A stretch of 64,000 nucleotides of DNA from Pseudonocardiaceae bacterium. Its GTDB lineage: Bacteria > Actinomycetota > Actinomycetes > Mycobacteriales > Pseudonocardiaceae. The stretch covers positions 9,145 to 73,144 of the forward strand of contig DATNDR010000086.1 in NCBI GenBank assembly GCA_035606945.1. Reading direction: 5' to 3'. A program made the position numbers and the translations under genes. Every line of letters starts with the position of its first letter. Position 1 is the first letter of the stretch. A model generated the notes under the pieces. That model ran no database searches and had not been told where the DNA came from. It was given only the letters and a program-made list of their open reading frames with translations. This document shows positions 52,901-64,000 of this stretch, one piece after another.

Positions 52901-53102
52901 ACGGGCGAAACGTTGACACCATGGTCATGCGCCTGACGGCGAGCAGCCATCCTGTCGAACTCGGTGACAAGACGGCTGCCCACAATCATCAAGATCGGCT
53001 GGATACGGGGCACGCCTTCGTCCGGTGGGCGGCGTCAGCGGGGCCGGCATTCACTGATCGGGGTCGCGACCACCGCCGACGGCCTACCGGGCTGTAACTG
53101 AT

Positions 53103-53303
53103 TCAGTGAAGGCCTAGGAAATTCCCATAGCGGGGACGTGGGTTGTAGCCGCAACCGTCGTTGTAGCAGTAGTAGCCATGGTCGTAGCGGCGGTAGTGGT
53201 AGCCGGTGGGGCGGTAGGGGCCATCGCCACCCCAGCCTTCGCAGCCACAATCAACGCCGTGTCCATACCCGCCACCCTGTGCGAAAATCTGTGCAATTCT
53301 CAT
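53103..53303 (-). CDS. small Gly/Tyr/Cys/His/Arg-rich protein (66 aa), function unknown
   Basis: ATG 53303 is preceded at 6 nt by GAAGGAG. The product is MRIAQIFAQGGGYGHGVDCGCEGWGGDGPYRPTGYHYRRYDHGYYCYNDGCGYNPRPRYGNFLGLH, with no signal peptide or TM. Confidence 0.55.
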   Translation of the reverse strand: MRIAQIFAQGGGYGHGVDCGCEGWGGDGPYRPTGYHYRRYDHGYYCYNDGCGYNPRPRYGNFLGLH

Positions 53304-53391
53304 GCCCGCTCCTTCGGGATAGGTAGCAGAGCAGGGACGCCAGTAATCCCGGACAAGCCTGTGCAGTGCGCATGCGGCTTCATGAAAGTGA

Positions 53392-53407
53392 GCGATCGAT
53401 CGATCGC
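53392..53407. promoter_or_regulatory. perfect 16-bp palindrome GCGATCGATCGATCGC (candidate operator)
   Basis: Seen directly. It lies ~90 bp upstream of the small G/Y/C-rich gene in a non-coding stretch. Confidence 0.3.
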
Positions 53408-53805
53408 ACTGTCAGGCTGGATGTGATCGAATCGTAATGTGCGCGCCGGAGACGTCATCTCACGGCATGGTGCGGGCAGTGCCCCCCGGTATCAACACCG
53501 GCAGCTCGTCGTCGCACAGTCAGCAATCCCCCCAGTTGTCCGACTGGCCTCCTTACTCAGCGTGGTCATATGCATCTCGAACGTAAGCGATACTCTCCGT
53601 GATTTCAACTATTACTTTGTGTATACATCTGCCTACAGTACGTGAGGAGTGCGACGTGGCCGTGGCCAAAGGTGCCCGACCAGACGGTACGGGTAGGTGA
53701 GGTCGTCTGGCCGGGCGGTTCCCGATCCGGACAGTGCGGTGGAGGAGGACTCGTCCGGCCGGGTAGCTGAAAGGAGAAGTCGTGGGTCGGCAGGCGCCGC
53801 GGTGA

Positions 53806-54249
53806 CTAGGCGGGTACGGGCATCAGTGCCCTCAGTGGCTCGTGATCAAGCAACGTCAGCTTGATCCAGCCGTGGCCGCAAGGTGTGATGCGGACCATGG
53901 GCACATCCATACCCGCGGCGATGCGGTGCGCTTCGGCTTCGAAGTCGTCCACCACCTGGCCGGGCAGCATTCGCACCAGCAGCGTCACCGGTGGGCCCGG
54001 ATCCACCGACTGCACCTGCGGGGCCACCATGACGGGTAGCCTCCCGGCGGTCACGGTGTGATGCGCGAGGTCCGTGTTGTCCATCGTGTCGTTCCACTGC
54101 CAGACCACCTCACTGGCCCACCGTGCCAACTCGTCAGCTTCTCGCCGACGCTGCAGCCAGCGCGGTGTCCACCGGGAACGGTGACGGCCCGACAGCTCGG
54201 CGTGCCGACCGACGGCCCTGGTACTCACACCGCTCGAAATGAGCGTCAT
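53806..54249 (-). CDS. FtsK/SpoIIIE-type conjugative-transfer protein, N-terminal-region-like fragment (no ATPase domain)
   Basis: 147-aa ORF. QVQSVDPGPPVTLLVRMLPGQVVDDFEAEAHRIAAGMDVPMVRITPCGHGWIKLTLL resembles the pre-ATPase region of actinomycete ICE/plasmid Tra (FtsK-like) proteins as I recall them. The P-loop part is absent. Confidence 0.3.
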   Translation of the reverse strand: MTLISSGVSTRAVGRHAELSGRHRSRWTPRWLQRRREADELARWASEVVWQWNDTMDNTDLAHHTVTAGRLPVMVAPQVQSVDPGPPVTLLVRMLPGQVVDDFEAEAHRIAAGMDVPMVRITPCGHGWIKLTLLDHEPLRALMPVPA

Positions 54250-54412
54250 GACAATTCCCTCCTCTATTCCGTTACCCTGGTGCGTTGTCGGGTTATGTCC
54301 ATCTAATGCAGTGGATACCCGTCAGGGATTGGTTCAAACGACTCGTCAACGATTCTTGACTGGGACGATACTTCGCGAGAACAAGCCACATCCGCGTTTC
54401 GCGTGCGGCCTG

Positions 54413-54802
54413 TCAGGGCGAGTTCTCCAAGGCTGCGGGCACGGTGTCGGCGAAACTGAACTGCTCTCGTAGGCCCGTCACGTCCAAGGCGCGATTGATC
54501 ATTCCTGAGTTGCACACCAATCGCAGGTGGTGACCTTCTCGCGCAGCGAGTTCATTAGCTTGGACGAGCACGGACAGACCGGCAGATCCCAAGAATTGCA
54601 CCCCATCGAGGTTCAGCACCACCAGGGGAGCAGCGGTCACCTGGGCGATCACGAACACGGCCAGCTCCGCGGCGGTCAGCGTATCGATCTCGCCTCCCAC
54701 GGTGACCACCCGAGCGTGGGGACCGTGCCCGGTCACCTGCAGATCCAGCACGTCGGAGCACAACGGACCTGCCCTGCCCAGGGTGCCCGGTAGTAGCGCC
54801 AT
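54413..54802 (-). CDS. STAS-domain anti-sigma-factor antagonist
   Basis: ATG 54802 is preceded by GGAAAGGAG. VTVGGEIDTLTAAEL...LNLDGVQFLGSAGLSVLV...LRLVC...RALDVTGL is the classic SpoIIAA/RsbV pattern, with the phosphorylatable Ser in GSAGL. Confidence 0.8.
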   Translation of the reverse strand: MALLPGTLGRAGPLCSDVLDLQVTGHGPHARVVTVGGEIDTLTAAELAVFVIAQVTAAPLVVLNLDGVQFLGSAGLSVLVQANELAAREGHHLRLVCNSGMINRALDVTGLREQFSFADTVPAALENSP

Positions 54803-55316
54803 CGCCGGCTCCTTTCCTGCCTCGGTGGCGCCCCAACGGCGACGCCAATCCTTCCCTGACGATCGGATCATGGTGACCCTGACCGTGACCGTGAGGTTGC
54901 TGAGAGTTACCCACCCTGTGCAAGCGCAAAACCTTCGCCTGCTTCGCAAGGCGTGGTCTGTGTTCGACGAGCGCGCGGCAAGCGCCAGCGCCTGTGCCCA
55001 TCAACGCCGTCGCATCGGCCCCATGAGCTCGGCAGCACGATGTCGACACCGAGGCGATCGACCTGCAGAAATTCGATCTTGGGCAACCGGCGGGATAGCG
55101 CATCAGTGCGACTCTCGCGGCGTTAGGAGCCAGCTCTTGTTGCGCCGCAGAGCGCTGAACGTACGGTCCAGTCCAGCCGGCGTGATCGTCGGCCTGACGT
55201 GCTCGCGTGTCATGTGAGTGCGCTTCACCTGGGGACAACAATCTCGGATTGGCTTACGATTGCCCAACGCAGCGCACTTCGCGAACCGATAACAGCAAAC
55301 ACGCTAGGAGCTGACC

Positions 55317-55457
55317 ATGACTGAATCCGAAAAGGGGCAGCACGACGAAGACTCGCAGACCGATGACGACACCGCGGAGGACGAGCGCATTAACGATCCG
55401 CTTACTAAAACCGATGTCAAGGCACCCCGTACTCCCTTCGGATCAGAGGATTCATAG
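55317..55457 (+). CDS. small acidic hydrophilic protein (46 aa), hypothetical
   Basis: ATG 55317 is preceded by AGGAG (6-nt spacer). The product is MTESEKGQHDEDSQTDDDTAEDERINDPLTKTDVKAPRTPFGSEDS. It is below the size cut-off of the supplied ORF track. Confidence 0.3.
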   Translation: MTESEKGQHDEDSQTDDDTAEDERINDPLTKTDVKAPRTPFGSEDS

Positions 55458-56195
55458 CTCAATTCACGAGGGTCGCGGCCACCGCGCTCATCGGCATTGC
55501 GAGTGCGCCGTGGCCAATGCCACGTAGTCAAGGAGGGCTGAACAGTCCTTGATCACAGTGATCATGCGTGCTTGACCGACCACTAACTTAGCGGCATCGA
55601 GCCGTGGCCTGGCCCTCACCGCGCGCGGGTTCACCGGTTCCGGCCTTCTGGGGTGCGCCGCGGGTTTGTGGGCAGTGGCGCATCCTGCTGGCGGCGATGG
55701 CGCGCATGCGCGGTTCAGCAGGATGCGCGCGTCCACAGTCGCGCTCCTCGCAGAGCAGGTAGGGAATCCCTACCTCCGGTAGGGGATTCTTCCTTTCTCA
55801 TTGGGGTGCGCGCTCCCGCGAGCTGCGCGGCGGAGGTCACCACGGAAAACACTGCCTCGCCCCTCACTACTCCACCCAACGACTCAGACGATGGCGGCGG
55901 GGTTCGTTCCTCGAAGGGCTTCAGTGCTTTGCCCAGCATTGTCTTGGCACTGCGCTACACACTGTCCTACGCGGACCCGGCTACCTACGCTGATTGGGCA
56001 GCGCTACACCGGTCGCGCGTATGGCGGCTGACTAAGCTAGGTAGTACCCCGCAAGGGTTACGTAGGATTACGGATTGCCACCCCGTGGAGGGCTAGGCAC
56101 TGTAGGTGATGGCCGGACCGGCGCTGCCCGCCGGTTCCGTGCCATACACACGCCTTCCGGGTAACTCTACATGTGACTGTTCTGGGGGAAATGTC

Positions 56196-56498
56196 ATGTT
56201 CGATGCGATCAGCGACGCCGAAATCGGCTGCTACGAGCCGGAATTGCTGCCCGCGCGCACCGTCTTGTCGATGCGTAGCGGCGGTATCCAGGGCGTTCTC
56301 GGCGATAACAACAGCGGCACGAGCGGCGGGTCCGGAAGCCACGGCGGCGCCAGCCACGCACATAATTTCAACCTGCTCTGGTGGCTAAACCAGCCCGGCA
56401 CGGCGAACCCGGACACTGCCGGTGCGGGCAGCACCGCCGCTGCCAACCACACCGCCGGAAGCGAGATCGGAAGCGGCGGCGCGGACGCGAACGGCTGA
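56196..56498 (+). CDS. 100-aa protein with acidic leader-like N-terminus and Gly/Ser/His/Asn/Ala-rich low-complexity body
   Basis: ATG 56196 is preceded by GGGGGA. The product starts MFDAISDAEIGCYEPELLPARTVLSMRSGG, then continues IQGVLGDNNSGTSGGSGSHGGASHAHNFNLLWWLNQPGTANPDTAGAGSTAAANHTAGSEIGSGGADANG. Confidence 0.45.
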   Translation: MFDAISDAEIGCYEPELLPARTVLSMRSGGIQGVLGDNNSGTSGGSGSHGGASHAHNFNLLWWLNQPGTANPDTAGAGSTAAANHTAGSEIGSGGADANG

Positions 56499-57094
56499 CC
56501 AAGTCGAGCAACCCGGGCACGGGTCTTGCCACCATGAAATGTCGGCAGTCGCTGGCGAGTTGTCATGACGTTCGCCGTGCCCGTCGCCGAAGGTGGCTGC
56601 ATCGTGCCCAACAGCCGTGGGTCCCGGGCCCAAACGTGGACGGGAATGCTGCGATCGCGGTGGAGCAGGACTACGTCGACCTGCTCTACCGCCATCTCGA
56701 CCAACGTTGCCAGTACACCGCGGCGCGCCTGGCTGAGGTGCTGCTGGCGACAGTGGACGTATCGGCTGACTTTTTGCTGCCTCCGATCAAGCCGGATGCC
56801 CGGATCGGAGGCCCCGTGTCGGCGCGCCAGCCTGAGGATCGCCTCGCGCCGCTCGCGCAGTTCGTCGAGCGAGGGTGGTGCGTGCCGAAGTTGTCAGCGC
56901 CAACTAACTCTCAGTGGTGGCTTTGGACCCGGCAGGTACTGGTGCGTGGTCGGGGAGTTACGGTCATGCCGTGGCGTTTCGGATAGCGCTAGATCGGCTT
57001 CGGGATGCTCGACGTTGCTGTATTTCACAGCTGTATGGCTGATCTGGGCGCACAACCCGACAGCGCAAGCCGCTGCCCTGCTGGTCCAGTCTGT

Positions 57095-57136
57095 CGAGGT
57101 GACGGGATTTGAACCCACGGCCTCTTCGTCCGAAGA
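57095..57136 (-). other. tRNA 3'-half-like fragment (long variable arm + T arm + acceptor 3' strand), possible att remnant
   Basis: The minus strand reads TCTTC-GGAC-GAAGA (variable-arm hairpin), GG, CC-GTGGG-TTCAAAT-CCCGT (T arm with 2 G-U pairs), CACCTCG. No matching 5' half or anticodon arm could be found. Confidence 0.35.
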
Positions 57137-57860
57137 AATGAAAGCACCGCGCTGGCCAGCGCGTTTCAGCGGGTTCGACCTGTTCAGACATCCCTCACGA
57201 TCCCGGAAGTCCGCCGTCATACGTGGTGATTGTCACGCAGTTCGTCACGCACGCCGCATACACGATGATCATAAGGTATACGGCAATTGCCGTGTGAATG
57301 GCACGCTCAGCCTGGTCCCCTTGGTGGCCTCTGCCGCACGGGGTGGTGGCAGTGCTCTCCAAACCGCGCCGCCCAGCAGGACAACCAGCACATCACCAGC
57401 ATCACGCTCCAGGTCAGGCGCGGAAGCCACCACAGGTGACAGCGCAGGTGACCGTGGCATCTTTGCCGAGCAAGGCCATCAATGACGGCGCGGGACCAGT
57501 CGATCAGTCCCCGAGCGCCCGGTCCGTCCAGATCGCCCATCATTTATCGGGTACCAGCCGACGCGACAACTCGTCAAGCACGACCGGGACCATGGCCGCA
57601 TCACCGCCCGGCTTTCGCCTTCGATGCCACGGACTGATCCACGAACTTGTCCAGGTCGCCTCGTATGAATGACCTATTCGGCACCCACAGGCTGAGCACC
57701 CCAATCACCGGGCCAGAGGAGCAGGCCGGCTTTTGGAATCCCACAGGATGACCAGTTCGGCACCCGCAAGCACGAAACGGCTCTGGTAACGTGGAACCCG
57801 CCACGCCGCACATGCCGAATCGACGGAATACTGCATTGTGTACAACCGGAAAGGCGAGCT

Positions 57861-58973
57861 CTATCGCGAGATCAGTTCAATAAAGCGATTTGCTATTGCT
57901 GTGCGTGTTATTGCGGTCTGACCACGTGCTAGGTGGAATAGAGCTTCGCCCATCAAGCGGCTCGCGGTGCTTCCTGTTATCATCGCCGTTGCACCGGATG
58001 CGGCTATACACGCTGTACCGGCTCGGCAGGTCAGCTCAAGTGCCGCAGCCCGTAATGCCTGCCGGTCGGCAAGACTTTTTTCCGATGTGAATTCGTCTGC
58101 CAGCCTATATGTTTGCTCCCGTAGTTGTGCGCCCTCGCTGGCCAAAGCCATGCCGAGGTCGTAGTACTTGGGGCCCGAGCGAGGGGCTGAGGCCACAAGG
58201 AAATCGGTTGCGGCGCGCAATGTCCCATAGATGCCGGGGTTGACATCGGCGCGATCATACTTATCCTGACGAAGCCACGCATCCCACGAAGTGCTGCCGA
58301 TTACTTGGTCGGGCGTCACTGCGACGTCGCGTAGCTCGACCGAGACGGTGCCGGTCGCGTTCATGCCCCATAATTCCTGCGGGCGAATTTCTCCGATACC
58401 GTTGTCGGTGCGGCAGGGTAGAAGCATCGATAGAACCTGGCCGTCCGGGGTTACCGCGGCCACCAAGAACACATCCGCTAGGAACCAGCCCGTCAGCCAG
58501 GGAAGGCGGCCGGACAGGCGCCATCCTAGCCGATCTGGGGTGGCGACTACAGCGGGCGATCCAGTGCGTCTCAGGTGGGAGGTTGCTTCGGCGCCGAATA
58601 CCTCGCCGTTTACCATAGCCTTGAGCCACTTATCGCGTAATTCTCGGTTGGCGCTAGCGGCGACTTCTTTAACCGGTTGGTGATGCTGATGTGAGACGAA
58701 CCAGGTGGAACCATCCGCTGCGGCCACTAGCTCGGCAACTTCCCGACGAACTTCCTCGTTGTTTAATGGACCTGCCGGTTGGTAGGTCATCAGCCCGAGG
58801 ACACCCGCGCGGCCAAGGGCTTCGAGGTGAGATCGAGGTACGCCGAACTTTGCGACGTGGTCAGCTTGCGGACGCAGCGTCTGATCAGCCAGCTCGGTCG
58901 TACGAGCGATCAGGACGTCCTCGAGCAGCCTAGGGGGCGTAGATAAAGCAGTTGTGGGCGCTGGGGACATCAC
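57861..58973 (-). CDS. acyl-CoA dehydrogenase-fold flavoprotein family member
   Basis: 370 aa. The overall three-domain ACAD pattern is an N-terminal helical part, a middle beta domain (GWRLSGRLPWLTGW...) and a C-terminal helical bundle (GATAMITGSTASRLMGEALFHL). It lies in low-GC DNA, and substrate and chemistry are unknown. Confidence 0.65.
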   Translation of the reverse strand: MMSPAPTTALSTPPRLLEDVLIARTTELADQTLRPQADHVAKFGVPRSHLEALGRAGVLGLMTYQPAGPLNNEEVRREVAELVAAADGSTWFVSHQHHQPVKEVAASANRELRDKWLKAMVNGEVFGAEATSHLRRTGSPAVVATPDRLGWRLSGRLPWLTGWFLADVFLVAAVTPDGQVLSMLLPCRTDNGIGEIRPQELWGMNATGTVSVELRDVAVTPDQVIGSTSWDAWLRQDKYDRADVNPGIYGTLRAATDFLVASAPRSGPKYYDLGMALASEGAQLREQTYRLADEFTSEKSLADRQALRAAALELTCRAGTACIAASGATAMITGSTASRLMGEALFHLARGQTAITRTAIANRFIELISR

Positions 58974-59695
58974 CGAGGAATTTGCTCGATTACACGGTTA
59001 TTTACCACGACAGCCGGGGGCGCAGAAGATGAGTCGGGTATTGCCGCAAGCTCACTGAATTTTTCTCCTAAGGGGCGAATAATGTGTTGCTCTACCTGGT
59101 AGTAACTAGTAAGTGTGGCGAGCGGTGCTCGCCGCATGTACCAGTGTCCATGTAAGTCGCAACCGATCTCGTTGCGTCGGAAGCCACCGGTGAGCCATCC
59201 TTCGGTCTCAGATTCGCAGGTACGCTCGATGCGGAAGTGATTGAAGATGGTGTTGGCAGTCGTGTGGACGCGTTCGTTCGGATCGCCCGGGCGTGGGATG
59301 GTGACGCCAAACCAACACTCCGGTTGGTCGGCATCGTTGACATACGCATCGTTGAAACCGAGCCATGGCCACACGAAGGCGATTAGTCGTGCCTGCGCGG
59401 TCGGGCAATCATCGATCGGCGTGCCGGCTGGTAGCCGGTCCGGATCAATGTAGAAACGACCCAGCCATGTCGGCAGCCATAGGTAGTAAGGATAGGAGCT
59501 ATCATCAGAAAGCAGGTAACTGTTAGCGTTGCTAGATAGTTCATTCCCTGCTATAGCGCGCAACCGAACGCCGTATTCGGCAATAGAAAGCCGAACGCTG
59601 ATTACCTCAAAGAAAGAGCGAATGTCGCGGAAATACTCCGACATATCACGGTAGGCATTTGTGACCGAGCCGAGCACGTGCGCCCTGAAGATCAT
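58970..59695 (-). CDS. hypothetical protein (241 aa), no recognisable domain
   Basis: Its stop overlaps the ACAD-like start (4-nt overlap). Trp/Tyr-rich (YPYYLWLPTWLGRFYIDPD, FVWPWLGFNDAY, CDLHGHWYM) with no TM. Codon usage matches its neighbours. Confidence 0.6.
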   Translation of the reverse strand: MIFRAHVLGSVTNAYRDMSEYFRDIRSFFEVISVRLSIAEYGVRLRAIAGNELSSNANSYLLSDDSSYPYYLWLPTWLGRFYIDPDRLPAGTPIDDCPTAQARLIAFVWPWLGFNDAYVNDADQPECWFGVTIPRPGDPNERVHTTANTIFNHFRIERTCESETEGWLTGGFRRNEIGCDLHGHWYMRRAPLATLTSYYQVEQHIIRPLGEKFSELAAIPDSSSAPPAVVVNNRVIEQIPR

Positions 59696-59729
59696 AACTT
59701 CTACCCCTCGCGACTTGCGGTTACAGCTT

Positions 59730-59750
59730 TATATGTGTCCGCAGCATATA
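59730..59750. promoter_or_regulatory. TATATG-N9-CATATA inverted repeat in divergent promoter region
   Basis: Seen in the 124-bp AT-rich spacer between the divergent 58970-59695 and 59820-61499 genes. Confidence 0.25.
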
Positions 59751-59819
59751 CTGACGCTATACAGTAAGTAAACAGCTGATGACCCAAAGGTGATGTGAAG
59801 TGATCTTCGAGGACGAGCC

Positions 59820-61499
59820 ATGGTAGACGCGGGAGGCGGCGGGATAGAGGTCGATGTGGCCGTCGTTGGCGCCGGCATCGGCGGATGTTATGTCAGTCTC
59901 CGCTTGCTGGAGGCTGTCCGTACTGGGCAGTTCCACACCACGACCCCATTGCGATCTTCCGCGCGTACCAGGCCGGTGACCGTAGCGCTGTTTGAGGTGT
60001 CCGACCGGATCGGTGGCCGGTTGCACTCGATCCAGCTACCCGGTGTTCCGGATGTATGGGCAGATTTGGGCGGTATGCGGTTTCACCGGCAGCTCCATCT
60101 AGTCTGCGACCTGATTCGCTACGTCGGATTTGAGCAGTTTATCACTTCATTCTTTTTTGACCGGCCCGAAAACCTTACTTATGTACGCGGGGTCCGCTTA
60201 CGACTGCACGAGCTGACCATCGCCGCATCGGACCGGCTTCCATACCGGCTGCGGCCGCAGGAGCGCGGACGCAACGGTGTTGGGCTTGGCTTTCTGGCTG
60301 CCGAGTCAGCACTACCGGGATTCTTTGCGTTGTATCGACGGCATCACGCCGCGCAGTCCCGATTCGATTGGTCCGAGGCAGATGCGGTCACTGCCGACTA
60401 TGCTCATGTCAGAGAAAGCGCTCGGGTAGCCGGACGCAGGCTGCTTGACCAGGAGTGGTCGGCGGTGCTGGAGCATACGCTGAGCGCGGAAGCGATGTGT
60501 TTGATTGAAGATACCGGCGGTTATGACTGCCGCCAATGGACGGGAAACGCGGCCAACTGGTTGGATTTATTATTTCATACCCCTCCGGATGTTGAGTATC
60601 TGCGGCTGTCTACGGGGTTTGAGTCGTTACCTCGTGCCGTGCATGCCCGTTTCCACGCCGGCGGCGGGCGCACCTTTCTACGTCATCGCCTACAGCGACT
60701 CGACCGGGCCAGACTTCGGGACGGCTCGGAAGGATATCGATTAACGTTTCAGCTTGCGGAAGTCGGGAGCGCCGGGAGATACACCACGGTTGAGGCTAAA
60801 GTCGTTCTGTTGGCTTTGCCGCATAACGCTTTGCGCTCGCTTGATTCGGATACCTTTATCTTCGCTTGCCCTATCGTCCGGGTCGCCTTGGACGCGGTCA
60901 AGGCTGTGCCCGCCTATAAGTTGTTCCTTGTCTATCCAGCACCCTGGTGGAAGCAGGTCGGCGTTAGCAGCGGACGGAGCACAACAGATTTACCGTTGCG
61001 TCAGTTGTGGTACTGGGGGACAGCGACCGAGAGCTACCGCACGGATCGACAGGCGATGCTGCTCGCGGCCTATCCAAGTGGATCGGCTGTGCGCTTGTGG
61101 GATAAGCACTTTCGCGATCGCGACCTTCATATGCCTGCGGCACTCGATGATTCTGCCGCTGTGCAAATAAGTGAGGTTCAACATGCTCATGCGATGGTTA
61201 TGCGACTGCATGGTGTGACGAGGGCGCCGCCACCGATTGCTGCCCGCTGGCAGGACTGGCCAAATCCCGATGGGGCTTGGCACGTTTGGCGGCCTGGATA
61301 CGATTCTCGACAGATCATTCCGCGTATCCGTCGGCCGTCGCGACGCGATGCGGTGTTTATCGTCAGTGATTGCTGGACCGGTGATCCCGGCTCGGTCAAT
61401 GGCACGCTGAGCTCGGCGGAGTCCGTACTGCAATACCATCTTGGCCTTACGTGGCCGGACTGGTTACGCCGAGATGGCACCTATCTGATTCCAACCTGA
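59820..61499 (+). CDS. FAD-dependent amine oxidase / L-amino-acid-oxidase-fold protein
   Basis: 559 aa. DVAVVGAGIGGCY (dinucleotide fold), EVSDRIGGRL, LGGMRF. The C-terminal FIVSDCW...GSVNGTLSSAESV resembles the flavin amine oxidase C-terminal FAD contact. Confidence 0.75.
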   Translation: MVDAGGGGIEVDVAVVGAGIGGCYVSLRLLEAVRTGQFHTTTPLRSSARTRPVTVALFEVSDRIGGRLHSIQLPGVPDVWADLGGMRFHRQLHLVCDLIRYVGFEQFITSFFFDRPENLTYVRGVRLRLHELTIAASDRLPYRLRPQERGRNGVGLGFLAAESALPGFFALYRRHHAAQSRFDWSEADAVTADYAHVRESARVAGRRLLDQEWSAVLEHTLSAEAMCLIEDTGGYDCRQWTGNAANWLDLLFHTPPDVEYLRLSTGFESLPRAVHARFHAGGGRTFLRHRLQRLDRARLRDGSEGYRLTFQLAEVGSAGRYTTVEAKVVLLALPHNALRSLDSDTFIFACPIVRVALDAVKAVPAYKLFLVYPAPWWKQVGVSSGRSTTDLPLRQLWYWGTATESYRTDRQAMLLAAYPSGSAVRLWDKHFRDRDLHMPAALDDSAAVQISEVQHAHAMVMRLHGVTRAPPPIAARWQDWPNPDGAWHVWRPGYDSRQIIPRIRRPSRRDAVFIVSDCWTGDPGSVNGTLSSAESVLQYHLGLTWPDWLRRDGTYLIPT

Positions 61500-61544
61500 C
61501 ATTCTACTTAGCTGCTGCCGACATGTTACGCGAAGGAGCAATCC

Positions 61545-62837
61545 GTGGCCGATCACGAAGACGTCGACTATCCAGTGCTTGATGAACGCAGCCTACCCGC
61601 GTACCTGGCTAGGATGCCTGAGGTCGCATCACGGCTCGGCGGCGCGCCCGCCGATTGGGTTGTCCAAGAGATCGGCGATGGTAATGTGAATTTTGTCTTC
61701 GCTGTGCGCGGTCCTGGGGGCGATGTCTGCGTTAAACAGGCACTACCCTACGTCCGGGCCGTCGGTGCAGAATGGCCGCTAACCCCTGAACGTACCTCTT
61801 TTGAATATCGCGCTCTGCTTGAGCATGGTCGATACGTCGCTGGCCGAGTTCCGAAGCCACTGCACTACGACCCGCACTTGCGGCTGCTGATCGTTGAATA
61901 TCTCGGTGGGCTCACCGTGATGCGCCATGGCCTCGTGGCCGGTGCCTGCTATCCGAATTTCGCCGAGCACATCGGCAGCTATTTAGCGCAGTCGTTGTTT
62001 TTTACCTCCGACCTCGCGCTGGCAGGACCCGACAAGCGGATATTGATGTCACTATTTCACACCAACACGGAGATGTGTCAGATCATGGAGGACATGGTCT
62101 TCACAGAACCTTACTGGGATCACCCACGTAACCGCTGCACCAGCCCACAGTTGGACGACGAGCGATACCAACTTCAGCGCGACAGCCGGCTTAAAATTGC
62201 CGTGGCCAGACTCAAGACCCAGTACCTGGCCAACGCCGAAGCGTTGATCCATGGTGATCTACACACCGGCTCTATCATGGTCTCTTTAGATGATACTCGA
62301 GTTATTGATCAGGAGTTCGCCTGCTACGGCCCAATGGGATTCGATGTGGGTACCTTGCTTGCACACCTCCTGATTAACTACTTTGCTCAGATTGGTCACG
62401 GTACACCCAAAGATCCGCGCAGCAAGCAACAAGAATGGCTCCTGGAGACCGTAGTCGAAGTGTGGACAAACTTCAGACTTCATTTTTGCGCATTCTGGGA
62501 GACCTCCGGCGCGGGCGACGCTTACCCTTCCTTGCTTTTCGCCGATCCCGTCGGGCAAACGGCTTTAGCGGAAGAACGAGAATCCTATCTGGATAGGTTG
62601 TTCATCGACACGCTTGGATTTTGCGGCGCGGAGATAATCCGCCGCATCTTTGGCTTCGCCCACACGGCCGATTTCGACACAATTACCGATCCTGATCGCC
62701 GCGCCTCCTGCGAACGCTCAGCAATACGAATGGCGCACCAGCTTTTAGTCGGACCCAGTCAATACCAGACCATTACAGCGGTCACCGTCGCCGCCCGAAA
62801 GTTCGGCGAGCAATTCGGTGGAGACTATAATAAGTAG
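61545..62837 (+). CDS. mtnK: S-methyl-5-thioribose kinase family protein
   Basis: GTG start, 430 aa. VQEIGDGNVNFVF, VKQALPYVRAVGAEWPLTPER, LIHGDLHTGSIMV, VIDQEFACYGPMGFDVG and GAEIIRRIFGFAH are collinear with MtnK as I recall it (B. subtilis type). Confidence 0.8.
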   Translation: MADHEDVDYPVLDERSLPAYLARMPEVASRLGGAPADWVVQEIGDGNVNFVFAVRGPGGDVCVKQALPYVRAVGAEWPLTPERTSFEYRALLEHGRYVAGRVPKPLHYDPHLRLLIVEYLGGLTVMRHGLVAGACYPNFAEHIGSYLAQSLFFTSDLALAGPDKRILMSLFHTNTEMCQIMEDMVFTEPYWDHPRNRCTSPQLDDERYQLQRDSRLKIAVARLKTQYLANAEALIHGDLHTGSIMVSLDDTRVIDQEFACYGPMGFDVGTLLAHLLINYFAQIGHGTPKDPRSKQQEWLLETVVEVWTNFRLHFCAFWETSGAGDAYPSLLFADPVGQTALAEERESYLDRLFIDTLGFCGAEIIRRIFGFAHTADFDTITDPDRRASCERSAIRMAHQLLVGPSQYQTITAVTVAARKFGEQFGGDYNK

Positions 62838-62906
62838 TCTTTTCCGCTTGCGGGCGGCGAGGGTGTTCCACGATTGACCACCGCCTCCAGTATGGAGAGA
62901 TTGCTC

Positions 62907-63728
62907 ATGCATATATTGTTGGGAACTAGCACAGCGGAAGCTGGACGCGATAATGAGGACTTTGTGATAGCGGCCCCGGGAGCGGCTGTCCTTCTTGACG
63001 GTTCCCAAACGGCGGTTGAGCGAGACCAAGGATGTTTTCACGGCGTGGTTTGGTACGTTCAGACACTTGGCACCATATTGATCACCGAAATCATTAGTGG
63101 ATCCACCTTGTTACCGAAAGCTCTTTCGACATCTATTCAACGTGTACGGTCCCTACATGAAACGACCTGTCAACTGGACTACGCTGGAAGTCCATCGTCG
63201 ACTGTCGTGGCTATGCGAGCGAGTGCCACCGACCTTGAATATCTGGTATTGGGAGACTCTACGTTAATGCTCGACTGTTTTGATAACAACCCGGAGGTCA
63301 TCAGCGACGATCGGGAAGCACGCGTTGGACGCCAGTACCGCGCCGCGATGGACAAAGTTCCAACCGCTAGCTTAGATCATAAAATAGCGCACCGTAAATA
63401 CGTCAAAGAACTTTATGCGCACCGCAACCGCCCTGGTGGTTATTGGATAGCCAGTGGAGATCCCCATGCGGCGACTGAAGCGGTCACGGGGGTAATTCCG
63501 GTCCATGGCCTTCGGGCTATAGCTTTACTCAGTGATGGTGCGTCTCGCCTTGTTGACCGGTTTCACTTAGCCACTTGGGCCGATCTCGCAAAGGTCTTAG
63601 AAGAGCACGGGCCAGGCGAACTAATCCAACGCGTACGCGCCGCTGAGGACGGCGACCCGATCGGGCAACGCTGGCCACGCACCAAAGTTCGTGATGACAT
63701 CACCGTCGCCTATCTACGTTTACGTTAG
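62907..63728 (+). CDS. PP2C-family protein phosphatase-like protein
   Basis: ATG 62907 is preceded by GGAGAG. GRDNEDFV, AVLLDGS, LGDSTLML, ALLSDGASRLV and RDDITVAYL match the PP2C/SpoIIE metal-binding Asp motifs. Confidence 0.7.
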   Translation: MHILLGTSTAEAGRDNEDFVIAAPGAAVLLDGSQTAVERDQGCFHGVVWYVQTLGTILITEIISGSTLLPKALSTSIQRVRSLHETTCQLDYAGSPSSTVVAMRASATDLEYLVLGDSTLMLDCFDNNPEVISDDREARVGRQYRAAMDKVPTASLDHKIAHRKYVKELYAHRNRPGGYWIASGDPHAATEAVTGVIPVHGLRAIALLSDGASRLVDRFHLATWADLAKVLEEHGPGELIQRVRAAEDGDPIGQRWPRTKVRDDITVAYLRLR

Positions 63729-63751
63729 TCCGATCGGGGGTCCGACGCGAC

Positions 63752-63895
63752 ATGGCTAGGCACGGCTACGCCACGTTCGCCGTGGACCGGCTCGGCACCG
63801 GCCAGAGCAGCAAGCCGCCCAGCGTCACATTGCTGAGCAGTGTCGAGGCGGCATCGATCCATCAGATCGTTGGCCACCTGCGCGCCGGCCGATAG
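63752..63895 (+). pseudogene. alpha/beta-hydrolase gene fragment
   Basis: High-GC DNA resumes here. MARHGYATFAVDRLGTGQSSKPPS... matches the region preceding the nucleophile elbow of alpha/beta hydrolases. An in-frame TAG after 47 codons follows, and both the N-terminus and the GxSxG part are missing. Confidence 0.4.
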
Positions 63896-64000
63896 GCGCG
63901 GGCGTCGCGACGCTGGAAGCAGCCGCTTACCAGGACCAATTGTCGATCCTCGGCTTCGGGCTGTTTCTGACATTCGGTGACGAGGGTCCCGCATCGGGTC

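Follow-up and report, generated by a model that had tools for sequence, protein, structure and literature searches.

Methylthioribose (MTR) kinases (MtnK) carry a G-loop GXGNXN, an HGD motif with the catalytic Asp, a Mg-binding IDXEF motif, an RR pair with a Glu or Lys three residues upstream and a W-loop Trp, and they cap the 5-methylthio group with hydrophobic residues, V184/V370 in the Arabidopsis thaliana enzyme and L180/L345 in that of Bacillus subtilis (PMC2194712). In L-amino-acid oxidases (LAAOs) of basic amino acids, the basic side chain is contacted by E383 of AncLLysO and Q350 of PT-AROD (PMC11694665). Our literature search found no paper tying a methylthioribose kinase to an amino acid oxidase in a gene cluster, and such a link goes unmentioned in a review of methionine salvage (PMC6302742).

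We analysed a 64-kb stretch of DNA (the window) in which genes of these two families are neighbours, with an FAD-dependent oxidase gene followed on the same strand, after a 45-nt spacer, by an MtnK-family kinase gene (Table 1). The sequence-only reading that drew attention to the pair had placed both open reading frames (559 and 430 aa) correctly, and all the motifs that it quoted are found. It missed that the real unit is a module of two to four genes, whose core partner is the upstream 241-aa protein. We see about an even chance that the kinase is part of a compact, horizontally mobile metabolic module and not a stray methionine-salvage gene.

Table 1. Features of the module and its surroundings in the window
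Feature	Coordinates	Strand	Basis or remark
ACAD-fold flavoprotein, 370 aa, optional fourth gene	57861..58973	-	Acyl-CoA_dh_N, AF2 fold
241-aa protein	58970..59695	-	Near-invariant oxidase partner; without Pfam/NCBIfam match
Intergenic region	59696..59819		124 bp, divides two divergent transcription units
Cytoplasmic FAD-dependent L-amino-acid-oxidase-type enzyme, 559 aa	59820..61499	+	PF01593 103 bits, solved relatives
MtnK-family (5-substituted ribose 1-kinase) protein, oxidase-linked clade, 430 aa	61545..62837	+	TIGR01767, motifs, tree
PP2C-like protein, 284 aa	62874..63728	+	PF13672 19.7 bits, under cut-off 24; adjoins module

The kinase, which starts with GTG 6 nt downstream of a Shine-Dalgarno sequence (GAAGGAG), scores 463 bits against the NCBIfam MtnK equivalog TIGR01767 (cut-off 275) and is collinear with both solved MTR kinases, those of Arabidopsis (2PYW, 361 bits) and B. 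subtilis (2OLC, 257 bits), being about 45% identical to the proven plant enzyme. It also matches PF01636 (APH fold) and, weakly, an LxmK-like family (35.7 bits). Every MtnK motif is present (GDGNVN, IHGDLH, IDQEF, E-I-I-R-R and EWPL), and the catalytic and ribose-binding motifs are kept in 26/26 cassette kinases, with Gln as the middle DXE residue of the oxidase-linked enzymes. The cap residues of the window kinase are Met/Phe, still hydrophobic but bulkier; the first is Met in 25 of the 26 cassette kinases and the second is Phe in 19, otherwise Leu or Met, whereas the sister clade and most non-cassette homologues have Leu/Leu. As judged from these alignments, the oxidase-linked kinases have the full MtnK catalytic and ribose-binding apparatus with a predicted altered pocket for the 5-substituent. 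They are monophyletic (support 0.90, or 0.97 without the basal Solibacter sequence), with an actinobacterial subclade at support 1.0, and their sister clade adjoins sugar ABC transporters. Every member of the oxidase-linked clade is automatically annotated as "S-methyl-5-thioribose kinase". The proposal that the kinase had been recruited to another pathway finds support in its core idea, while the suggested amino-sugar or nucleoside-derived substrate lacks specific support because the active site is canonical at every catalytic and ribose-binding position.

The oxidase has an N-terminal FAD motif (VVGAGIGG) and matches PF01593 over residues 53-534. Among solved proteins, those closest to it are the L-arginine oxidase of Pseudomonas (8T8A/8JT7, 193 bits), an ancestral LAAO and the ancestral L-Lys oxidase (7EIH/7EII), and it aligns full-length to 8T8A and 7EIH. 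The Arg of the GGMR motif (R87), which we take to bind the substrate alpha-carboxylate, is kept in 35/36 cassette oxidases, and a conserved Lys (K367) in all 36; this Lys differs K-to-A between 7EIH and 7EII, the latter being a substrate complex in which it is mutated to Ala. We preferred LAAO to a reading as polyamine oxidase, which was dropped because every top-ranked solved relative is an L-amino-acid oxidase and because the Arg for the carboxylate is retained. At the site corresponding to E383/Q350, 34 of the 36 cassette oxidases have Val and two have Ile, so that the polar or acidic side-chain residue expected of an L-Lys or L-Arg oxidase occurs in none of them. The alignment thus points to an active site of LAAO type that is hydrophobic at the spot used by Lys and Arg oxidases to hold the basic side chain.

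Across a comparison set of 38 related loci from at least 11 genera and several phyla, the 241-aa gene and the oxidase gene are adjacent in 36, usually in divergent orientation. The kinase gene follows the oxidase gene in 25 loci of Actinomycetota, Myxococcota and Acidobacteriota with unrelated flanks, and the same cassette is found in Embleya and Streptomyces, again with unrelated flanks. Several further members of the kinase clade, and homologues of the 241-aa protein, lie on contigs of matching size. The conservation of the pair in three phyla and the monophyly of its kinases bear out the earlier pairing of the two genes, which is not due to chance, and a pair confined to one genome, the outcome that would have refuted the sequence-only reading, is clearly not what is seen; adjacency is evidence of shared selection or regulation, not of a common substrate. 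Ten Streptomyces loci have the oxidase and 241-aa pair without the kinase, which is therefore dispensable to the module core. When the kinase, the oxidase and the 241-aa protein are compared by their distance matrices, the correlation is r = 0.94-0.96, a mirror-tree result that is expected too for any genes of common history. In myxobacteria, the oxidase and kinase genes are the last of a densely packed operon that also encodes HldE-like, SIS, HAD, aminotransferase and GT9 proteins.

The 241-aa protein is the best conserved of the module, most homologues being 60-70% identical. Profile searches against Pfam, NCBIfam and PDB all came back empty, and its AF2 model (pLDDT 84, pTM 0.82) has no Foldseek match in the PDB at E <=0.001 (best TM 0.23), so that no fold could be assigned by either PDB route. 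The family is rare, with no more than 73 clusters in a set of 5.8 billion proteins, each of them labelled hypothetical, and its fold is confidently predicted but unmatched in the PDB. Cyanobacterial homologues, considered as a clue to the ancestral partner, are solitary genes flanked by aldo-keto reductase genes.

An ACAD-fold, AurF or FMO-like gene comes after the 241-aa gene in about 17 of the 38 loci. In the window this is an ACAD-fold gene, whose GTG start codon shares bases with the stop codon of the 241-aa gene (GTGA); such a gene occupies this position in about 13 other loci, an AurF-family gene in three loci of two genera (Kitasatospora and Planomonospora) and an FMO gene in one. The ACAD-fold protein has a Pfam Acyl-CoA_dh_N match of 25 bits, and its best family matches, SfnB (54.6 bits, cut-off 430.9) and DszC (19.6 bits, cut-off 850), are both below threshold; PDB profiles return DszC and glutaryl-CoA dehydrogenase at about 36 bits. 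Its AF2 model (pLDDT 87) reaches TM ~0.77 to ACADs, and structure search did not discriminate between oxygenase and dehydrogenase: it puts ordinary acyl-CoA dehydrogenases first, so an oxygenase label is tentative.

With respect to methionine salvage, the window holds no other such gene, as had been noted, and the rest of the genome does not supply the pathway either. Among the enzymes searched (MtnA, MtnB, MtnD, MtnN and MtnP), only MtnA is found (349 bits, contig C1), while MTAP (MtnP), MtnN, MtnB and MtnD all lack a match above cut-off, so that a canonical Yang cycle is not seen, nor is the full salvage route elsewhere in the genome that would have counted against the sequence-only reading. 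Weak mtnB-like and PNP-family matches lie on contigs C40, C19 and C31, and the genome's only other PNP-fold protein is an HpnG-like-IspH fusion. The MTA nucleosidase MtnN (TIGR01704) is above cut-off in 0/38 genomes, the window's own included, with weak matches of 30-56 bits in 20 genomes; MTA phosphorylase (MTAP) is present in 35/38. These absences are HMM calls on draft genomes after a first-pass filter, and divergent nucleosidases could therefore escape them. We observe mtnA above cut-off in the window's genome and in 18/25 other kinase-bearing genomes (missing or sub-threshold in the remaining seven), as well as in 10/10 kinase-less genomes, and MtnB and MtnD in 10/25 kinase-bearing against 4/10 kinase-less genomes. 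Whether a genome has MtnA, MtnB and MtnD bears no relation to whether it has the kinase, and the kinase clade is uncoupled from MtnN, MtnA, MtnB and MtnD. Since hosts lack a recognisable route to the kinase's textbook substrate, the kinase probably serves a pathway not yet described.

The cassette lies inside an island with a GC content of 0.55-0.60 against 0.67 for the genome, and neither the cassette nor any MtnK occurs in the 60 relatives searched (36 of the same genus and 24 of the same order). The module was acquired on this low-GC island. The sequence-only reading had remarked that M. tuberculosis-type mycobacteria lack mtnK, a remark in whose spirit the relatives searched agree, but had assumed a mycobacterial host, which is not borne out: the genome probably belongs to Pseudonocardiaceae and not to Mycobacterium, the annotation being Pseudonocardiaceae or Pseudonocardiales for proteins that share 90% or more identity with its MtnA. 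ARAGORN finds no tRNA at 50-64 kb of the window or in the next 20 kb downstream, and island borders based on tRNAs were dropped. Within the island, the 0.7-4 kb downstream of the cassette include genes for a GT87 and a DUF6311 (GT-C-like) protein. The adjoining PP2C-like gene was ruled out as a module member, being missing from all 38 related loci and found elsewhere only in L010, a contig of a near-identical strain. As for regulation, an Rfam search of positions 57000-64000 (E up to 1) gave no match, the divergent intergenic regions of 33 loci have no motif or operator in common, and promoter and terminator scans stayed at background level; a riboswitch or shared operator was thus dropped.

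The core of the module is the cytoplasmic LAAO-type flavoenzyme and the 240-aa protein (241 aa in the window); a dedicated MtnK-clade kinase is encoded directly downstream of the oxidase in most lineages, and the 240-aa gene is often followed by one for another redox enzyme, be it ACAD-fold, AurF diiron or FMO-like. In the pathway that we propose, the kinase would phosphorylate, at O1, a ribofuranose with a modified 5-position (MTR-like, 5-deoxy or 5-thioether). This sugar would not come from MTA in the host, but may be taken up from outside or may belong to a substrate also bearing the amino-acid group attacked by the oxidase. The oxidase would deaminate a neutral or thioether L-amino acid, and the optional oxygenase would oxidise an S or N heteroatom within the same metabolite family, the whole possibly being a scavenging or detoxifying pathway for an S- and N-containing by-product of SAM chemistry. 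A narrower version, which we hold to be improbable, is an unrecognised pathway for a metabolite with a free anomeric ribose OH, a thioether and an alpha-amino acid, with S-ribosyl-L-homocysteine or a close analogue as prototype. The anomeric OH would then be the target of the kinase, the amino acid that of the hydrophobic-pocketed LAAO and the heteroatom that of the putative oxygenase (ACAD-fold, FMO or AurF), while the 240-aa protein may either be a new enzyme or belong to the oxidase as an obligate subunit; if true, soil bacteria would have a LuxS- and SahH-independent route for SAM by-products.

It is conceivable, though on the whole unlikely, that the kinase is an ordinary MtnK, an MTR/5-deoxyribose kinase with which soil bacteria scavenge MTR or 5-deoxyribose excreted by neighbours into the MTR-1-P pool that MTAP also fills, with the oxidase merely co-regulated, for example in a nutrient-scavenging island. 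The equivalog score, the intact MTR-binding motifs and the identity to the plant enzyme all fit this, as do the transporters beside the sister clade, which would suit uptake of free MTR or 5-deoxyribose, and the mtnA gene of the window's genome and of 18 others. Furthermore, bacteria without MtnK excrete MTR (PMC6302742), and DrdK illustrates that family members take both MTR and 5-deoxyribose (PMC6079011). However, 7/25 kinase-bearing genomes have no bona fide MtnA for the product, the cassette has no linked transporter, and the clade is monophyletic, strictly oxidase-linked over several phyla and marked by its own pocket signature; the co-travel of the LAAO, the novel-fold protein and the putative oxygenase would also be left unexplained.

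By analogy, the kinase might instead activate a 5-modified pentose-1-phosphate as a building block for an envelope glycan or a small natural product, with oxidase and oxygenase tailoring donor or acceptor, a reading that we regard as rather improbable. M. tuberculosis lipoarabinomannan carries a methylthioxylose cap derived from MTR-1-P, and the mycobacterial MTX pathway reportedly starts from this compound (Angala et al., 2017, reference 49 of PMC10675199), offering an analogue; the GT87 and DUF6311 genes of the island and the make-up of the myxobacterial operon that ends in oxidase and kinase point the same way. Glycosyltransferases are nevertheless absent near the cassette in the examined Streptomyces, Embleya and Kitasatospora loci, the cassette and the GT87 gene of contig L010 have an IS fragment (rve_3) between them, and no nucleotidyltransferase or epimerase is conserved alongside the module. 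That the kinase acts on an antibiotic, an oxidase product or a protein, or that the adjacency is functionally meaningless, is highly improbable: the APH fold is common to many antibiotic and small-molecule kinases, and the LxmK-like match would agree with such a substrate, but conservation extends to the RR motif that binds ribose, to DXE-F and to the W-loop, the equivalog score is far over its cut-off and the adjacency is kept in 25 loci over several phyla.

Annotated as S-methyl-5-thioribose kinase, members of the clade would lead metabolic models to infer methionine salvage, whereas the partners of the clade are an amino-acid oxidase and a rare protein family whose fold is unmatched. Should the proposed module turn out to handle SAM-derived thioether or deoxy-pentose by-products by a new route, a further branch would join a pathway family that has already sprung several surprises, among them the DHAP shunt, the disposal of 5-deoxyribose and the anaerobic formation of ethylene, and an orphan fold would gain a function; with only two to four genes in the module, a heterologous-expression test is easy.

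Compared with known systems, the fourth gene resembles DszC/TdsC and SfnB in its ACAD fold, SfnB and DszC being its top matches, and AurF in that an AurF-family gene fills the same slot in Kitasatospora and Planomonospora; in contrast to DszC and SfnB, its scores are far under the family cut-offs, structure search does not part it from acyl-CoA dehydrogenases, and no flavin reductase partner was seen. DrdK and the DHAP shunt of ExPEC and R. rubrum (PMC6079011, PMC10986504) likewise use an MtnK-family kinase outside the classical Yang cycle, in a family that is promiscuous for the 5-substituent. Here, however, the isomerase (C1) and the only aldolase-like gene (C40, generic class II) are unlinked to the kinase, neither function is encoded near it, whether in the window or in those related loci for which gene tables exist, and seven cassette genomes lack a bona fide isomerase. 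The oxidase shares its full-length fold, FAD motif, GGMR Arg and Lys with PT-AROD (8T8A/8JT7) and the ancestral L-lysine alpha-oxidase (7EII), but is only about 30% identical to them, replaces the side-chain Glu/Gln by Val/Ile and is encoded next to the 241-aa partner, an arrangement undescribed for those enzymes. Finally, the kinase shares full-length collinearity, TIGR01767 and all motifs with MtnK (EC 2.7.1.100; B. subtilis 2OLC, A. thaliana 2PYW and Klebsiella), yet differs from it in its Met/Phe caps, in place of Leu/Leu or Val/Val, and in the DXE middle Gln; it belongs to a separate, LAAO-tied clade that is never clustered with mtnA, mtnB or mtnN, in hosts without MtnN above cut-off that mostly use MTAP.

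A sequence-only reading had placed an amine oxidase gene next to a gene for a kinase of the 5-methylthioribose (MTR) kinase (MtnK) family, and had proposed that the kinase was recruited to a different pathway; both open reading frames are found where it put them. They are separated by 45 nt, and a GAAGGAG Shine-Dalgarno sequence lies 6 nt upstream of the kinase GTG start. The kinase exceeds the 275-bit cut-off of the NCBIfam MtnK equivalog and aligns over its full length with both solved MTR kinases (Arabidopsis 2PYW, 361 bits; B. subtilis 2OLC, 257 bits). Upstream lie genes for a 241-aa protein and for a protein with an acyl-CoA dehydrogenase (ACAD) fold. A PP2C-like gene after the kinase was rejected as a member of the module, since it was found in none of 38 related loci (tblastn) and is specific to the island in the window.

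Features of the oxidase-kinase locus and of related loci; unprefixed positions are those of the window, C numbers are contigs of its genome, and L numbers are extracted loci
Feature	Position	Strand	Remarks
ACAD-fold gene	57861-58973	-	370 aa; start overlaps the stop of the 241-aa gene
241-aa ORF	58970-59695	-	upstream of the oxidase; no family match
LAAO-type oxidase	59820-61499	+	559 aa; Pfam Amino_oxidase, 103 bits
MtnK-family kinase	61545-62837	+	430 aa; TIGR01767, 463 bits
PP2C-like gene	62874-63728		36-nt gap after the kinase; Pfam 19.7, below the cut-off of 24
Lower-GC mosaic	C122:~62000-88000 (window ~53000-64000 and beyond)		~25 kb
Locus L004	C122:69003-89002		
mtnA	C1:9662-10714 (L005)		sole copy in the genome; 349 bits; alone between two citrate synthase genes
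HpnG-like/IspH fusion ORF	C31:123130-123531 and flanks (L054)		499 aa; TIGR03468, 54 bits; full IspH/LytB, 412 bits
~480-aa protein	L034:5459-6928; L031:5536-6984; equivalents in L040, L033		57-95% mutual identity
Myxobacterial operon	L050:1-10290		
Sister-clade kinases	L055:7001-8284; L056:7001-8299		Pelagibius; an ENA genome
Distant 241-aa homologues	L057/L058:8001-8690		35-40% identity

The nearest kinases outside the strain of the window, from Embleya and Streptomyces, share only 61% identity with it, and we observe there the same four genes in the same divergent layout within wholly different flanks (oxidase, 47 to 48% identity; 241-aa protein, 63 to 65%; ACAD-fold protein, 44 to 47%). 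With the 241-aa protein as a marker and one genome per species, 38 loci were collected from Actinomycetota (Streptomyces, Embleya, Kitasatospora, Yinghuangia, Nocardiopsis, Saccharothrix, Planomonospora, and two Actinomycetota MAGs), Corallococcus, Myxococcus (including a record labelled Comamonas), Thermoanaerobaculia, Ca. Solibacter, and one cyanobacterium. By tblastn, the oxidase adjoins the marker in 36 of the 38 loci, the two exceptions being the distant cyanobacterial locus and one truncated by a contig end. The kinase directly follows the oxidase in 25 loci and is truly missing from 10, nine of which are closely related Streptomyces loci with the core pair of oxidase and 241-aa protein only. 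Pairwise distances among the kinase, oxidase, and 241-aa protein are correlated (r = 0.94 to 0.96; 25 loci; Mantel P ~5e-4), showing that the three genes diverge in step, as is expected for any genes of common history and consistent with joint transfer.

The gene content around this core varies. The ACAD-fold gene is found in about 13 of the 38 loci (tblastn), and its slot after the marker is taken by an AurF-family diiron N-oxygenase in both Kitasatospora loci, and partially in Planomonospora, and by an FMO-like monooxygenase in one Embleya locus. In the myxobacterial and Thermoanaerobaculia loci, the 241-aa gene is directly preceded by a gene for a ~480-aa protein without a Pfam domain, of which no homologue was found in the genome of the window. 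In the myxobacterial locus L050, a densely packed operon of HldE-like (PfkB plus cytidylyltransferase), DAO, HAD, SIS, inositol-phosphatase-like, AAA_33 kinase, class III aminotransferase, and GT9 genes ends with the oxidase and the kinase.

At the locus itself, window GC drops from ~0.69 to 0.56-0.59 across 58 to 64 kb, within a mosaic of lower GC (0.55 to 0.64 versus 0.67 for the 4.74-Mb, 137-contig genome) that carries GT87, DUF6311 (GT-C-like), IS6/IS240-family transposase fragments, a PLP (PALP) enzyme, a 437-aa unknown, a PCMT-type methyltransferase, and, close to the contig end, a 510-aa large serine recombinase. Judged by proteins at least 90% identical to its MtnA, which are annotated as Pseudonocardiaceae or Pseudonocardiales, the genome probably belongs to the Pseudonocardiaceae and not to a mycobacterium. 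A search of 60 relatives (36 of the same genus, 24 of the same order) found neither the 241-aa gene nor any MtnK, so that the cassette is a recent horizontal acquisition.

In a FastTree phylogeny of 133 sequences (cassette kinases, their 120 best database matches, and the two solved enzymes), a single clade holds all oxidase-linked kinases (support 0.90, or 0.97 without a basal Solibacter sequence), with the actinobacterial subclade that includes the window's kinase supported at 1.0; several further clade members, on contigs whose lengths match those of contigs with 241-aa homologues, are probably linked as well. Next to each of two sister-clade kinase genes, a five-gene sugar ABC transporter is encoded in the divergent orientation, with neither mtnA nor mtnB nearby in these two loci, which suggests that both kinases act on MTR or 5-deoxyribose and are linked to uptake. 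All 26 cassette kinases, the window's own included, retain every functional element described for MTR kinases in PMC2194712, namely, the G-loop GXGNXN, the HGD-loop catalytic Asp, the Mg-binding IDXEF motif including the MTR-contacting Phe, the RR motif with its preceding Glu or Lys, and the W-loop Trp. The residue pair capping the 5-methylthio group (V184/V370 in Arabidopsis, L180/L345 in B. subtilis, Leu/Leu in the sister clade) consists in the cassette clade of Met plus a second residue that is Phe in most members and Leu or Met in some, and Gln stands in the middle of DXE in place of Pro or Ala. Because the motifs are intact but the cap and DXE residues differ, ribose-1-kinase chemistry appears to be preserved, with a 5-substituent pocket that bears a clade-specific signature of its own.

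The nearest solved relatives of the oxidase are all L-amino-acid oxidases (LAAOs): the Pseudomonas L-arginine oxidase 8T8A/8JT7 (PMC11694665), the ancestral L-lysine alpha-oxidase 7EIH/7EII, and an ancestral LAAO. Of 36 cassette oxidases, 35 retain the GGMR arginine, and every one has the Lys for which the 7EII substrate complex carries a mutation to Ala. The position contacting the basic side chain, Glu383 in AncLLysO and Gln350 in PT-AROD, is in contrast Val (34/36) or Ile (2/36), and this replacement points to an L-amino acid with a neutral or hydrophobic side chain as the likely substrate.

For the 241-aa protein, a confident AlphaFold model (pLDDT 84, pTM 0.82) found no PDB match at E <= 0.001 in Foldseek (best TM-score, 0.23). 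Among 5.8 billion proteins, its family forms only 73 clusters, each of them labelled hypothetical and lacking a Pfam domain. In filamentous cyanobacteria (Okeania and others), distant homologues occur singly, flanked by aldo-keto reductase genes, and neither oxidase nor kinase lies nearby in the two loci. The model of the ACAD-fold protein (pLDDT 87) superposes on acyl-CoA dehydrogenases (TM ~0.77), oxygenase and dehydrogenase not being separable by structure search, and its top sequence families, SfnB and DszC, both score far under their cut-offs. What we take to be the classical catalytic Glu position (MCAD C-terminal motif IYEGT) appears replaced within a conserved FHLVHGQT stretch.

We conclude from these observations that the kinase belongs to a mobile two- to four-gene module, whose core consists of an LAAO-type oxidase and a protein of unrecognised fold. 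We give about even weight to a functional coupling of the kinase to this module in a non-canonical pathway. That it is a plain scavenging MtnK, merely co-located with the oxidase, we hold to be rather unlikely. Besides its lone mtnA, the window's genome has no MTAP (MTA phosphorylase) or MtnD over cut-off, no MtnB (only a generic class II aldolase on contig C40), and no MtnN (MTA nucleosidase), its only PNP_UDP_1 proteins being a PunA-type purine nucleoside phosphorylase and the HpnG-like/IspH fusion; MTA deaminase plus PunA is one possible route around to the substrate of MtnA. Among the 38 genomes behind the related loci, many of them drafts and searched behind a first-pass filter, MTAP is over cut-off in 35 and MtnN in none (weak matches of 30 to 56 bits in 20). 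The 15 genomes with MtnB are also those with MtnD (10/25 kinase-bearing, 4/10 kinase-less). The mtnA gene is missing from six kinase-bearing genomes, sub-threshold in a seventh, and present in all 10 kinase-less ones. Where present, the full pathway forms a separate MTAP-centred cluster, as in Corallococcus, with mtnB, ARD, MTAP, mtnA, and aldolase on one contig away from the cassette. From this distribution, the hosts would form MTR-1-P by phosphorolysis, with no recognisable internal source of free MTR, and cassette-kinase presence is unrelated to that of the downstream pathway.

A role of the kinase in building glycans or specialised metabolites seems improbable to us. A non-sugar kinase function or meaningless adjacency is very hard to credit beside the conserved MTR kinase motifs and the recurrent gene order. 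The most likely activity of the kinase is still phosphorylation of a 5-modified ribofuranose at O1, in a setting outside the canonical route by which endogenous MTA is recycled. The recurring third or fourth enzyme would be drawn from three unrelated families known to oxygenate heteroatoms, and because of these families and the hydrophobic side-chain pocket of the oxidase, our most economical guess at the substrate family is a by-product of SAM chemistry with a thioether or amine group; that the pathway specifically handles S-ribosylhomocysteine-like conjugates is a long shot. Beyond family membership and gene linkage, we infer function throughout, and the module is readily testable experimentally.

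MtnK-family kinases have been described in Yang-cycle operons, drdK-drdI-drdA clusters, and the DHAP shunt (PMC6079011, PMC6302742, PMC10986504), and in our literature search no account tied them to an LAAO. The kinase comes from a known family, but its conserved LAAO context is new and its pocket signature distinct, and its constant companion has an uncharacterised fold.
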